A stretch of 64,000 nt of DNA from a virus. The notes beneath the pieces are model-generated. The model saw nothing but the letters and a program-made list of their open reading frames with translations, did not search any database and was not told the origin of the DNA. Positions 38,798-50,558 of this stretch are shown piece after piece. Position numbers and translations under genes: made by a program. Numbering within the stretch: the first letter of the stretch is position 1; each line of letters begins with the position of its first letter. The DNA lies in IMG/VR virus record IMGVR_UViG_3300035565_000044, positions 1-64,000 of that record, one strand, 5' to 3'.

Positions 38798-38858
38798 TGA
38801 AAGCAAATACAGGAGGTGGACGAGGTGCATATTCACGTCATTGAATGTTTCCTAAAGT

Positions 38859-38934
38859 TGGTAGCGGGAGCCAGATTCGAACTGACGACCTCCTGGTTAT
38901 GAGCCAGACGGGCTTACCTCTGCCCTATCCCGCA
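38859..38934 (-). tRNA. tRNA-Met(CAT), initiator-like (1:72 mismatch)
   Basis: Cloverleaf; anticodon loop CTCATAA; T loop TTCGAAT; encoded ACCA; U1xU72. Confidence 0.9.
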
Positions 38935-38938
38935 TTAT

Positions 38939-39025
38939 TGGTCACGGACTGCGGACTTGAACCGAAGACTTCCACCTAATAGATTGCTCTAGGGCGGTGG
39001 CGTTCTACCATTAAACTACCCGCAA
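38939..39025 (-). tRNA. Atypical tRNA-like gene with a 19-nt anticodon loop containing a hairpin
   Basis: D arm GTTT-AATGGTA-GAAC; anticodon stem CCACC/GGTGG; T loop TTCAAGT; 3' CCA. Confidence 0.7.
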
Positions 39026-39028
39026 CAA

Positions 39029-39100
39029 TGGCGCTCCTACACAGGATCGAACTGTGATTTTCAGGATTGAAAGCCTTATCCCTCACCAGAGGATAGGAGC
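39029..39100 (-). tRNA. tRNA-Glu(TTC)-like, with a shortened D loop and irregular anticodon arm
   Basis: Perfect acceptor stem GCTCCTA/TAGGAGC + GCCA; T arm CACAG-TTCGATC-CTGTG; loop CTTTCAA(T). Confidence 0.75.
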
Positions 39101-48095: not shown

Positions 48096-48457
48096 CGGTT
48101 CTTGTTCCTATTATATATGGTTTCTAGCGCAGTTATAGATTCGCTAGATAAGGCTTCTTTGAAAATCTCAATAAGCTTTTCATTGTTAGGAGTTTCCTTT
48201 TCGGTAGGGGCTGAGTCCCTGAGCGACACAGCCACCTTTGCCACCACGCCCCCAGCATAGTAGCACAGAGCGCAAATAACTTCGTTGTAGTCGCTCCCCC
48301 TTCTCTCCTCAGAATCAAGCCACCTAAGGGCAGACTCTAGCATGTGTTTACGGGCGCGTCCTACGAGCGCGACCTGTTCGCTATCGCTGAGGCTATCTTG
48401 GTGGGCTGACTCCACCGCCGCAACGATCATTTCATCAAGCTGCTTTTCAATGTCCAT
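48092..48457 (-). CDS. Hypothetical protein
   Basis: RBS GAGGAG before MDIEKQ. Confidence 0.6.
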   Translation of the reverse strand: MDIEKQLDEMIVAAVESAHQDSLSDSEQVALVGRARKHMLESALRWLDSEERRGSDYNEVICALCYYAGGVVAKVAVSLRDSAPTEKETPNNEKLIEIFKEALSSESITALETIYNRNKNR

Positions 48458-48512
48458 ATTTTTCTCCTCTAACCCCTTGTATCCGTTACGGACGTTCGTT
48501 GCAAATGAGAAA

Positions 48513-48528
48513 AGTTTCACGTGGAGCA
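48513..48528. promoter_or_regulatory. parS-like palindrome 9
   Basis: AGTTTCACGTGGAGCA. Confidence 0.55.
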
Positions 48529-48537
48529 TTTTCCTCG

Positions 48538-48566
48538 TTGACATGGGGTTAATTAGGGCTTAATTA
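48538..48566 (+). promoter_or_regulatory. Promoter of the Y-RNA cluster with an embedded CtrA-type box
   Basis: TTGACA-N17-TAATTA; TTAA-TTAGGGC-TTAA at 48549-48563. Confidence 0.6.
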
Positions 48567-48576
48567 TCTCTTCACA

Positions 48577-48642
48577 GCCGGTGGCTAGGAAGTCGATTAC
48601 AACGTCTTGTGAACGCTAACATCGCCTCCGCTTTCCCCCGGC
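48577..48642 (+). ncRNA. Y-RNA-like gene 1 (minimal)
   Basis: Closing stem GCCGG/CCGGC; shared GTGGCTAG..CGATTAC..ATCG..CGCTTTCCC scaffold; upstream of the Ro60 gene. Confidence 0.75.
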
Positions 48643-48652
48643 GTCTGAATTT

Positions 48653-48790
48653 TTGTGTCGTGGCTAGGGATACGATTACATCTTCTATAGACAAGAAGAC
48701 TTGCTTGGTTCGATTCCGAGCTCCCCCACCATCTACGGGGGAGTGTCCAGGGTGGACAGTCGTTATCGTCCCCGCTTTTTCCCGACGCAA
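48653..48790 (+). ncRNA. Y-RNA-like gene 2 (YrlA-like, permuted tRNA domain)
   Basis: Same scaffold; T arm CTTGG-TTCGATT-CCGAG, acceptor-like stem CTCCCCC/GGGGGAG, D-like arm. Confidence 0.85.
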
Positions 48791-48797
48791 CTTAATT

Positions 48798-48937
48798 CAG
48801 TGGAGTGGCTAGATTTCCGATTACAACGATAGCTCAGTTGGTAGAGCAACAGACTTCATATCTGTAAGTCGTAGGTTCAAACCCTACTCGTTATCCCGTA
48901 AGGGGTAATCCATCGTAAATCGTTTTTCCCTCCACTG
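48798..48937 (+). ncRNA. Y-RNA-like gene 3 with an embedded canonical-order cloverleaf (anticodon TCA)
   Basis: Closing stem CAGTGGAG/CTCCACTG; same scaffold; cloverleaf at 48823-48894. Confidence 0.85.
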
Positions 48938-48946
48938 CTTTAAACA

Positions 48947-48984
48947 GGCGCCGGTTCCTTCGCAAGAGGGGATCGGCGTTTTTT
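48947..48984 (+). terminator. Intrinsic terminator after the Y RNAs
   Basis: GGCGCCGGTTCCTTC-GCAA-GAGGGGATCGGCGTT followed by a T tract. Confidence 0.75.
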
Positions 48985-49000
48985 GTTTGTAATGCGTAAT

Positions 49001-49055
49001 TTACGTCTCGCTTCATAGCGTGTCGTGACGTGCCGCAACTCACCGTAACGTAACG
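49001..49055 (+). repeat. CGY-NN pentamer array 9 (11 units)
   Basis: NN: TA CT TT AG GT GA GC AA AC AA AA; directly upstream of the Ro60 RBS. Confidence 0.9.
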
Positions 49056-49075
49056 TCTTGTAGAAAGGAAAGAAA

Positions 49076-50482
49076 ATGGCTCGTACTAATACTAGGACCA
49101 GAGCGCCACGCCCTCTGACGCATGAAGGCGCTCCAGCCGATAGGATCACAAAAGAGCAAGAGTTGCGCCGCTCTGTGTCTTGCTGCCTGCTTTGGGAGAA
49201 TGAATTCTATGAAAGCGGTGAAGACATTGCTAGCCGCATCAGGCGTCTCGCGCTGGAATGTTCTCCTCAATTTGTGTCTAATCTTGCTATTGATGTTCGC
49301 AATCGTCTTCACCTTCGTCACGTTCCTCTTTGGCTGCTTTGCGCTTTGGCTAAAACTGGAACTGGAATTCCGGGGCTTGTGGGGAATACTGTAGCACAAA
49401 CCATCCAACGCCCAGACGAAATTCCTGAGCTTTTGGCGCAGTATTACAAGGCCAATGGCGTTGCTATTAAGGATAAGGGCGGAAAGATCAACAAGATCAA
49501 GATGCCTAAGCAATTCAAGAATGGTATCGCGCGAGCCTTCACTAAGTTCAACGAGTACTCGCTGGATAAGTGGAACAAAGACGGCGATATCTCCTTGAAA
49601 TACGCCATGCGCGGCGTCCATCCAAAGCCAAAGGATGAGGCTCAGGCTCAGTTGTGGGCTAAGCTTTTGGGTAAGGAAGATAAGGAAACTGGCAAGTCTC
49701 AGAAGCTTAAGACGGCAGATACAGTCATGTCCGCCTTGAGCGCTGGAAAAGAAAAGAAAACAGCAGAAGATAAGAAAACTGTTTTCGAGCGCCAGTTGCG
49801 TGAAGGAAAGATTGGATATTTCGCGTTATTGAAGAACTTGCGCGGGATGGTTGATGCTGGCGTTGACAGGCAGCTCGTTATTGACGCATTGCGCGCTAGG
49901 AAGGGAGACAAGGGAATTTTGCCGTTTCGCTATGTTTCCGCTGCGCGGGCGGCGCCAACGTATGAACCATATGTTGATGAAGCTCTTCAGCACGCGATTA
50001 AGAGCAGCAGGGAACTTCCAGGGCATACTTGGGTGCTTGTTGACGTTAGCGGCTCCATGGACGCCAGTATCTCTGCAAAGAGTGATCTTAGCCGGATAGA
50101 CGCCGCTGCGGCTCTGGCGTCTCTGATTCACGGAGACAGAACAGTTATTACGTTCAGCAATGAAATAAAAGTTGTTCCAAGTCGCCACGGTATGGCTGGA
50201 ATTGAGGCTATTCTCAAGAGCCAGATTCATAGCGGTACTGAGATGGGAAGGGCCATAAAGTATGTGAATGATCGCGCCAAGCCCCAAGATCGGCTTATCG
50301 TGATCACTGACGAACAGAGCGGGGATGTCGTCCCTGATCCAGTTTGCCAGAACGCATACGTCATAAATGTTGCGTCCTACCGCAATGGCGTCAGTTACGG
50401 CCATGGATGGAACCATATTGACGGTTGGAGCGAAGCCGTGATAGATTACATTCATGAGCATGAGGCTACGCTTAAATTGTAG
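49076..50482 (+). CDS. rsr: Ro60/Rsr TROVE-domain RNA-binding protein with a C-terminal vWA domain
   Basis: THEGAPA, LLWENEFYE, LRHVP, QRPDE, F.EY.L.KW, HPKP, ALLKNLR, LPFRY, DVSGSM, ITDEQ and GWSEAV motifs. Confidence 0.93.
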   Translation: MARTNTRTRAPRPLTHEGAPADRITKEQELRRSVSCCLLWENEFYESGEDIASRIRRLALECSPQFVSNLAIDVRNRLHLRHVPLWLLCALAKTGTGIPGLVGNTVAQTIQRPDEIPELLAQYYKANGVAIKDKGGKINKIKMPKQFKNGIARAFTKFNEYSLDKWNKDGDISLKYAMRGVHPKPKDEAQAQLWAKLLGKEDKETGKSQKLKTADTVMSALSAGKEKKTAEDKKTVFERQLREGKIGYFALLKNLRGMVDAGVDRQLVIDALRARKGDKGILPFRYVSAARAAPTYEPYVDEALQHAIKSSRELPGHTWVLVDVSGSMDASISAKSDLSRIDAAAALASLIHGDRTVITFSNEIKVVPSRHGMAGIEAILKSQIHSGTEMGRAIKYVNDRAKPQDRLIVITDEQSGDVVPDPVCQNAYVINVASYRNGVSYGHGWNHIDGWSEAVIDYIHEHEATLKL

Positions 50483-50496: not shown

Positions 50497-50520
50497 GCTA
50501 CGCCCATAGCATGCTGATAG

Positions 50521-50558
50521 GCCCGCCCCTTGATCGCACCAGGGGGCGGGTTTATTTT
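50521..50558 (+). terminator. Terminator after rsr
   Basis: GCCCGCCCCT..AGGGGGCGGGT followed by TTTATTTT. Confidence 0.65.

Follow-up and report, generated by a model that had tools for sequence, protein, structure and literature searches.

The Y RNAs YrlA and YrlB accompany the Ro60 protein Rsr in Salmonella Typhimurium, Mycobacterium smegmatis, and 22 phages, including Caulobacter phage CcrColossus (PMC4201824; bioRxiv 10.1101/312249; Rfam RF02553). YrlA has been defined by a 5' GNCGAA(N0-1)G motif, followed by YUAY and then by T, closed-acceptor, and D stem-loops (Chen et al. 2014, PMC4201824), and the M. smegmatis representative can be cleaved by RNase P and can receive CCA (PMC4201824). 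The Ro60 of Thermus phage phiLo has been shown to bind two Yrl RNAs encoded upstream and to form a ternary complex with host PNPase (PMC12135203; PDB 9KOP, 9L5Y). The general precedent is that a stem motif of the Y RNA binds Ro60 and another module tethers a partner, which is PNPase in Deinococcus, Salmonella, and phage phiLo (PMC4201824, PMC12135203). The question of what binds the tRNA-like half of bacterial Y RNAs dates back to 2014. Here, an array of three tandem Y RNAs upstream of a Ro60 gene is described at positions 48538-50482 of a 64,000-nucleotide stretch of viral DNA (hereafter the window), which is the first 64 kb of the 100.5-kb virus record IMGVR_UViG_3300035565_000044, a record with direct terminal repeats.

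The three RNAs share one scaffold and carry three different tRNA-derived payloads, the last of which is a whole tRNA body that lacks an encoded CCA end and is nested within its Y RNA. There is good support for assigning the locus to the Ro60/Y-RNA systems. A preliminary description made from the sequence had already proposed a phage Ro60 with tandem Y RNAs on one scaffold, and this view holds not only for the window but throughout the phage clade to which it belongs, as judged by the two covariance models introduced below.

Organization of the locus

Three structured RNAs lie in a single promoter-to-terminator unit (48538-48981) directly upstream of the Ro60 gene. The features of the locus are as follows.

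48538-48567, plus strand: sigma-70-like promoter of the Y-RNA unit, TTGACA-18-AATTAT (10/12 matches; kept in the 96% relative L021)
48577-48642, plus strand: Y RNA unit 1, 66 nt, scaffold only with an apical hairpin (fold and R2 match)
48653-48790, plus strand: Y RNA unit 2, YrlA-type, permuted tRNA mimic (R1 and R2 matches and fold)
48798-48937, plus strand: Y RNA unit 3, scaffold around an unpermuted tRNA and a small GNRA hairpin, three-way junction (exact motifs, constrained fold)
48823-48895, plus strand: nested tRNA body of unit 3 (Rfam tRNA, ARAGORN, alignment to phage tRNA-Met(CAU) genes)
48895-48904, plus strand: GNRA-capped hairpin CCC-GUAA-GGG in place of the discriminator and CCA tail (read directly and fold)
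48946-48981, plus strand: intrinsic terminator closing the Y-RNA unit (16-bp stem, 8 G-C pairs, T run)
49076-50482, plus strand: Ro60, 468 aa, TROVE and vWA with a DxSxS MIDAS motif (Pfam, phrog_850, PDB 9KOP)
50516-50556, plus strand: intrinsic terminator downstream of Ro60 (terminator prediction)

Folding of this whole region yields three separate long-stem structures, with a minimum free energy (MFE) z-score of -5.1. The array ends 139 nt before the Ro60 start codon on the same strand, and thus lies well inside the distance (<4 kb, same strand) used for YrlA by Chen et al. (2014). The pattern TGGCTAG-N5-CGATTAC occurs without mismatch at 48582, 48661, and 48806, as established by direct reading and by pattern search. 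Allowing up to two mismatches gave four matches; 100 shuffled versions of the window averaged 0.52, and a count of four was never reached. The closing stems differ among the three units and the internal motifs are shared. Direct reading, pattern search, and folding therefore bear out the earlier claim of three consecutive units with shared motifs and different closing stems between a promoter and a terminator. The 3' motifs ATCG and CG(C/T)-T run-CCC are also found in all three units. The latter had been written as CGY-T(3-4)-CCC, which is slightly off in its T run, since the runs are 3, 5, and 4-5 nucleotides long.

The open reading frame (ORF) at 49076-50482 matches Pfam TROVE with 28.3 bits (cut-off 23) and VWA_2 with 28.8 bits (cut-off 27), and its MIDAS motif DVSGS (DxSxS) can be read directly. 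It also matches phrog_850 (E 2.7e-40) and, over its full length (residues 14-461), the Ro60 of phage phiLo (PDB 9KOP; E 9e-23). These matches identify the ORF as a complete Ro60. Its closest cultured relatives, which include that of CcrColossus, share 48% identity with it. A first scan found relatives in 23 viral contigs at 38-51% identity, plus one at 96% (contig L021), and a pattern scan indicates relatives of this Ro60 in 335 IMG/VR contigs. No RtcB was found anywhere in the 100.5-kb genome, nor any rtcA, which extends to the whole record the earlier remark that no rtcB was recognized in the window.

A scaffold shared across the phage clade

Because searches with the Rfam YrlA model matched no unit, covariance models were built from the loci of relatives. 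Sixteen long units (alignment A2) and 16 short units (alignment A3) gave the models R1 and R2, respectively, and both the window and L021 were left out of the alignments. The regions upstream of Ro60 in these relatives hold repeated motifs of the type GUGG(C/U)G(U/A)AG ... GGUUACUUC ... CGCCUGUUCCC. Analysis with RNAalifold reveals that the long and short sets share one scaffold. In it, a variable closing stem and a GG/CC pair step lead to an asymmetric internal loop, where the conserved motifs lie, and then to a second helix that ends in CGG/CCG directly before UUAC.

The covariation analysis proposed in the preliminary description gives strong support for this scaffold. In A3, 93% of cells are paired; column shuffles reach 64%, and sliding the partners gives 38-47%. 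Double changes occur at 16 of the 17 pairs, and the covariation score is 0.79 against ~0.12 for the slid controls. Units detected by R2 number 50 in 21 loci and 155 in 62 further loci, all on the Ro60 strand. Among cultured phages, R2 finds six units upstream of Ro60 in CcrColossus, five in Xanthomonas phage MET23-P3, and four in Brevundimonas phage Kikimora, and two units downstream of Ro60, on the Ro60 strand, in Microcystis phage Mvi-JY20. A same-strand array downstream of Ro60 is also seen in four other loci (L018:4396-4811, L023:4395-4882, L324:2942-3441, and L362:2846-3058). In total, models made only from other phages locate ~200 units beside Ro60 genes in ~85 viral contigs, and the Ro60 genes and their arrays often lie within phage tRNA gene clusters. 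The shared scaffold is a family trait of this Ro60 clade.

The differences between the window and its 96% relative L021 fall in loops or preserve pairing. A search of viral and metagenome contigs for the exact 14-base motif of the window yielded ~220 single chance matches and real units at one locus, presumably the L021 contig.

The candidate Ro60-binding motif has diverged within the clade. The preliminary description had treated GTGGCTAG as a motif different from the GNCGAA type, a claim that does not survive comparison with relatives. At the aligned position these carry GGCGAAG, GGUGAAG, GGCGGAAG, or GGCGUAG, and the window carries GGCUAG. Because the variants of relatives bridge GGCUAG to the published GNCGAA(N)G, the motif of the window appears to be a shortened, derived form of the known motif rather than one of another kind. 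The UUAC within CGAUUAC, which is present in all three units, corresponds to the published YUAY. Motif variants are 84% alike within a locus and 75% alike between loci (permutation p <= 0.0005), a pattern consistent with coevolution of a protein-binding site and the Ro60 of its locus, or with units evolving in concert.

Units 1 and 2 and the YrlA-type payloads

Folding, Rfam, and ARAGORN agree with the payloads originally proposed for the three units, namely a CUUGUGA hairpin, a permuted T/acceptor/D module, and a full cloverleaf. Unit 1 matches R2 from end to end with 13.1 bits (E 0.0013 over 701 nt) and is a short YrlB-like unit. Its hairpin carries the anticodon-like 7-nt loop CUUGUGA at 48606-48612. 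In L021 this loop is CUUGUAA, the sole change being G to A at position 37, and CUUGUAA is also the loop of the phage's own tRNA-Thr(UGU), from which the unit 1 loop differs only at position 37.

In unit 2 the scaffold leads into a variable hairpin, after which a T arm, an acceptor-like stem closed by a loop, and a D arm come in permuted order. Its T arm contains GGUUCGAUUCC, its closed stem is 7 bp long, and a D arm is present, which together constitute the T-acceptor-D series by which Chen et al. (2014) recognized YrlA. It matches R1, which derives from 16 units of other phages, from end to end with 41.4 bits (E 3.5e-8), and matches R2 with 25.8 bits. By this order and these scores, unit 2 is a YrlA-type permuted tRNA mimic. 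The loop of its variable hairpin is not conserved even in L021. An ACCA in the acceptor loop of unit 2 was considered as a functional CCA end and rejected, given that L021 has UCA there.

In most YrlA-type units of the clade, the hairpin that precedes the T arm has the anticodon-loop signature Y-U-NNN-R-A, and a class-I variable loop (for example, AGGUC) comes next. The anticodon-like triplet varies (UGU, GUU, GUA, UGA, CAG, and GCU). Because of this signature and the class-I variable loop, some of these units are called as tRNAs by ARAGORN. The 'tRNA-Ser' annotated in GenBank for Kikimora (L254:1263-1337) is such a YrlA-type unit, complete with scaffold, anticodon-like arm, T arm, closed stem, and D arm, and the 'tRNA-Gln' of CcrColossus (L252:625-692) lies between R2 units and is called as a tRNA by neither Rfam nor ARAGORN. 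Neither of the two annotated genes attains the Rfam tRNA threshold. The retained anticodon arm fits a published idea that YrlA derives from a dimeric tRNA transcript.

A nested tRNA without a CCA end in unit 3

Unit 3 has the same motifs in the same register as units 1 and 2. Its insert is an unpermuted cloverleaf at 48823-48895 that scores 61.9 bits with the Rfam tRNA model (cut-off 29) and is assigned anticodon TCA by ARAGORN. The D, anticodon, and T arms are present, as are all core tertiary-pair positions, so that the core of a cloverleaf is complete. Other features expected of a decoding tRNA are missing. The anticodon loop is CUUCAUA, with UCA at 48856-48858 and U rather than a purine at position 37. 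The 7-bp acceptor stem, A/U-rich and carrying a C2.A71 mismatch, is unsound. A CCA end is not encoded; its position and that of the discriminator are taken exactly by the hairpin CCC-GUAA-GGG, such that the 3' end is paired. By comparison, CCA is encoded in five of the six other tRNA genes that ARAGORN calls in this phage.

The D arm and anticodon stem of the insert closely resemble those of phage tRNA-Met(CAU) genes, and in the alignment its loop is the tRNA-Met loop CUCAUAA with CAU displaced by one position. We regard this tRNA as most likely a mimic that arose from a gene of the tRNA-Met(CAU) type, rather than as a functional opal suppressor. The phage uses TGA as an ordinary stop: 30 of 90 long ORFs end in it, and long open frames are separated by TGA no more often than by TAA or TAG, in disagreement with what is expected of a recoded phage. 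Recoding of TGA or TAG as an explanation for the UCA tRNA was therefore rejected for the window genome on the basis of its normal use of TGA. In the comparison of the window with L021, both strands of the second helix of unit 3 have changed (5' AUUUC and 3' UAAAU versus 5' GGAAA and 3' UCCC-type), and pairing is partly kept, at ~3/5 pairs by hand count.

Two other phages of the clade carry the same kind of insert. In L319 (Ro60 47% identity), a unit at 1428-1557 surrounds a tRNA of 53 bits with a canonical CAU loop. In L301 (Ro60 46% identity), a unit at ~1306-1447 surrounds a tRNA of 55.6 bits with a canonical, amber-reading CUA loop and A37. The L301 tRNA is followed by GCCC-GAAA-GGGC, the same GNRA cap element as in the window, and a plain MFE fold reproduces the three-way junction of scaffold, cloverleaf, and hairpin. 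In the L301 phage, CCA is encoded in all 29 tRNAs of the surrounding cluster and not in the nested tRNA; of the 30 other ARAGORN calls in this phage, only one has no CCA, and this dubious call is remote from the tRNA cluster. Over the three genomes, CCA is present in none of the three nested tRNAs and in 36 of 39 other tRNA calls, a difference with a chance probability of ~0.002 by our own calculation. All three nested tRNAs have acceptor stems that are A/U-rich or imperfect. By their design, these nested tRNAs would not be charged.

No sign of stop-codon recoding was seen in the L301 and L319 phages, for which the test is weak at their high G+C content. The nested tRNA is kept in no close relative of L301 or L319, and the three-way junction therefore lacks covariation support. 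Nor was a nested tRNA seen in the Ro60 loci of seven cultured phages, of which CcrColossus, MET23-P3, and Kikimora were checked by R2, Rfam, and ARAGORN; only R2 and the record annotation were used for Mvi-JY20, RsoM2USA, RHph_TM30, and Papperlapapp. In Mvi-JY20 the tRNA-Leu is of the ordinary kind.

Payload exchange is seen in L319 and two relatives (80% and 71% Ro60 identity). All three have the same closing stem at the last array position, where L319 carries the nested tRNA, the 80% relative a short hairpin, and the 71% relative a permuted YrlA-type module. Because close relatives carry different payloads in the same scaffold, a modular array design in which payloads swap within a constant scaffold is directly supported, as the preliminary description had anticipated when it spoke of a modular scaffold.

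Proposed function and competing explanations

The explanation that is regarded as probable, if still well short of secure, is that this is a phage Ro60/Y-RNA ribonucleoprotein locus whose RNAs act as tRNA-shaped adaptors without an aminoacylatable end. The three Y RNAs would arise by cleavage of a single ~400-nt transcript, and each would bind the phage Ro60 ring via the same handle; we infer this processing and binding, and likewise the identity of any partner. What the analysis itself establishes is the anatomy, membership of the family, covariation, the modular exchange of payloads, and the missing CCA. The handle would consist of the variable closing stem, the conserved asymmetric internal loop (5' UGGCUAG, 3' CGY-U run-CCC), and the second helix, which terminates in CGAU/AUCG ahead of UUAC. 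At its other end, each RNA would display a tRNA-derived module that cannot be aminoacylated. For unit 1 this would be an anticodon-type hairpin, and for unit 2 a permuted T/acceptor/D elbow of the YrlA type. In unit 3 the scaffold would grip an entire tRNA body at the acceptor end, and a GNRA hairpin would bury the CCA position. By precedent, such modules would serve as adaptors that dock Ro60 onto host proteins that handle tRNA or other RNA. The payloads are read in this manner because published Y RNAs tether a partner by their other module, and host PNPase would by precedent be the best-documented candidate for that partner.

Several observations weigh against this explanation. The precedent for the partner comes entirely from other systems. 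The Rfam YrlA model (RF02553), with which the preliminary description had suggested searching, matches no unit: no YrlA is found at E <= 10 in 48400-49100, and the 69-bit membership threshold is not reached. In the whole genome its best scores, 24.6 and 17.9 bits, belong to adjacent tRNA genes at ~85 kb, and inside the array it finds only an 18-nt piece of the unit 3 D arm (11.2 bits). The 5' motif UGGCUAG does not match GNCGAA literally. Both clade models fail to recognize unit 3 as a unit; R2 gives no match to it even with filters off, and R1 gives only a misaligned match of 14.9 bits (E 0.09). The unconstrained MFE structure of unit 3 (-47.5 kcal/mol) contains a longer GNRA hairpin that breaks the acceptor stem, and the fold constrained to the cloverleaf (-42.3 kcal/mol) is 5.2 kcal/mol less stable. 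Also, two of the three nested tRNAs have anticodons that read stop codons (UCA and CUA), for which a pure adaptor model offers no explanation.

A different role for the same RNAs had been suggested in the preliminary description and, as speculation for YrlA, is already in print (PMC7790460). The tRNA-like payloads, chiefly the anticodon-type loops of units 1 and 3, might bait or inhibit host anticodon nucleases or other defenses that target tRNAs, with Ro60 stabilizing or presenting them. This proposal is a possible but distinctly less favored one. It would account for the way in which the YrlA-type units of the clade keep a canonical anticodon-loop signature while the triplet varies by lineage, for the identity of the unit 1 loop to that of the phage's own tRNA-Thr(UGU) save for position 37, and for the fast turnover of payloads between close relatives, as expected in an arms race; the frequent placement of the loci inside phage tRNA clusters points the same way. 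Set against these points, the hairpin loop of unit 2 is not conserved even in the 96% relative, and the phage has no RtcB or other recognized repair partner. Salmonella YrlA was not cut by the SOS-induced anticodon nuclease, a result that is compatible with an inhibitor and proves nothing. A related and equally tentative proposal concerns only the nested tRNAs. Those that lack CCA and have nonsense or register-shifted loops (UCA in the window, CUA in L301, and CAU in L319) could constitute a distinct, recurrent class of Y RNA, in which Ro60 either presents an intact anticodon arm as bait for tRNA-targeting defenses or cages a suppressor for timed release, with the cassettes being exchanged in an arms race.

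Release is also central to the idea that unit 3 is a real tRNA gene, in effect a caged opal suppressor that is freed by RNase P and a 3' nuclease, receives CCA, and permits timed read-through of UGA, the scaffold being merely a paired leader and trailer. The tRNA score of 61.9 bits with every core tertiary-pair position in place, the possibility of RNase P cutting and CCA addition in M. smegmatis YrlA (PMC4201824), and the nesting of a canonical amber-reading tRNA (CUA, A37) in the same architecture in a second lineage (L301) all speak for this idea. It is nevertheless judged improbable in view of the pyrimidine U37, the C2.A71 mismatch, and the A/U-rich acceptor stem, the lack of an encoded CCA when five of six other ARAGORN calls in the window phage and 29 of 30 in the L301 phage have one, the locking of the 3' end in a GNRA hairpin, and a loop that resembles a tRNA-Met loop shifted by one base. 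Furthermore, TGA is the normal stop for a third of the long ORFs, and there is no sign of recoding. A further explanation would be that the array is a decayed tRNA gene cluster or a set of small-protein ORFs (48572-48790, minus strand; 48609-48812, plus strand) with no functional link to Ro60. Pieces resembling tRNAs are indeed present, and mechanical ORFs of 67-72 aa overlap the units. This account is highly improbable, because the scaffold helices covary over ~85 loci, always beside Ro60 and on the same strand, the differences from L021 lie in loops or preserve pairing, and the RNA structure explains why the sequence is conserved.

Additional observations

Some phages with Ro60 loci carry other unusual RNAs nearby. 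Stand-alone, canonical amber-suppressor tRNAs, with CUA anticodons, G/C-rich acceptor stems, and encoded CCA, adjoin Ro60 loci at L295:2925-3000 and L281:497-572 (on the same contigs as L007 and L006, respectively), and these phages may use TAG recoding. Upstream of the Ro60 array of another phage, L289:730-802 gives a 73-nt match to the Rfam model for transfer-messenger RNA (tmRNA) with 65.4 bits, above threshold, and may be a tmRNA-like tRNA domain.

In the genome under study, two clusters of tRNA-like genes were noted. Five tRNA genes (Thr-UGU, Pro, Met, Asn, and Tyr) lie on the minus strand at 84946-86136, outside the window; with the Rfam YrlA model, adjacent tRNA pairs of this cluster outscore true Y RNAs, which fits a dimeric-tRNA origin of YrlA. 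A small cluster of tRNA-like genes on the minus strand at 38807-39100 includes a tRNA-Met(CAT) at 38859-38934 and a weak tRNA-like element at 39032-39100 (34 bits, no ARAGORN call). Between these two is a D-arm/T-arm stretch that matches the YrlA-type model at E 8e-4.

Two further sequence elements flank the array. A perfect TTAA-N7-TTAA, which resembles a CtrA box, is present at 48549-48563 and overlaps the spacer of the Y-RNA promoter. Taken with the closest cultured Ro60 relatives, which are from Caulobacter and Brevundimonas phages, this box points tentatively to an alphaproteobacterium as host. At 48995-49060, after the terminator of the Y-RNA unit and before the ribosome-binding site of Ro60, there are ~13 pentamers of the CG(T/C)NN type in strict 5-nt register, and CG occurs in a single phase 9 of 10 times in this array in the Ro60 leader.

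Comparison with known systems

Much of this arrangement is already known, and it is common in phages. Phage Ro60 genes with adjacent Y RNAs, the production of several such RNAs per precursor, and YrlA-type mimicry have all been described (PMC4201824, PMC12135203), and tandem Y RNAs beside Ro60 were likewise known before, as YrlA/YrlB and phiLo Yrl1/Yrl2 show, a point on which the preliminary description needs correction. Like the array of the window, YrlA and YrlB are located next to Ro60 on the same strand with several RNAs per precursor, carry near the 5' end a GNCGAA(N)G-type motif, of which the window appears to have a variant, and then YUAY, and form a long stem from their 5' and 3' ends. 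The T arm, the acceptor stem closed by a loop, and the D arm of YrlA recur in unit 2, and a free CCA end exists in neither system. The window differs in that RF02553 gives no match, the motif is shortened to GGCUAG, and rtcB and rtcA are absent. Moreover, an anticodon-like arm and a class-I variable loop precede the T arm in the YrlA-type units of its clade; an anticodon loop is said to be lacking in Salmonella YrlA. The unpermuted whole tRNA of unit 3 is a layout absent from the literature that was searched.

Phage phiLo resembles the window in having a full-length homologous Ro60 with Y-like RNAs directly upstream. Its three CGAA-motif hairpins are spread over two RNAs (Yrl1 and Yrl2), which, unlike the units of the window, are described as stem-bulge-stem structures with no tRNA-like modules; this comparison was made by description. 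In Deinococcus radiodurans, Yrn1 and Yrn2 function with Rsr and PNPase (RYPER), and there, as in the window, a Ro60-binding helix is combined with a tRNA-like module and more than one Y RNA is present per locus. The D. radiodurans Y RNA tethers Ro60 to an exoribonuclease. That system is cellular, arranges its tRNA-like parts otherwise, and has no nested complete tRNA.

Three aspects are not described in the literature that was searched: whole tRNAs without CCA that are nested in Y RNAs and bear a GNRA cap, the anticodon arm that is retained in the clade, and the swapping of payloads within a constant scaffold. There are practical consequences as well, since genome annotation mislabels some of these RNAs as tRNA genes, and the Rfam YrlA model misses a large phage clade. 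Compared with the systems described previously, the clade constitutes a natural series in which one Ro60-binding handle is joined to an anticodon hairpin alone, to a permuted elbow, or to a whole tRNA lacking CCA. The same handle is found in cultivable phages of Caulobacter, Brevundimonas, and Xanthomonas, in which pull-downs and deletions are feasible.

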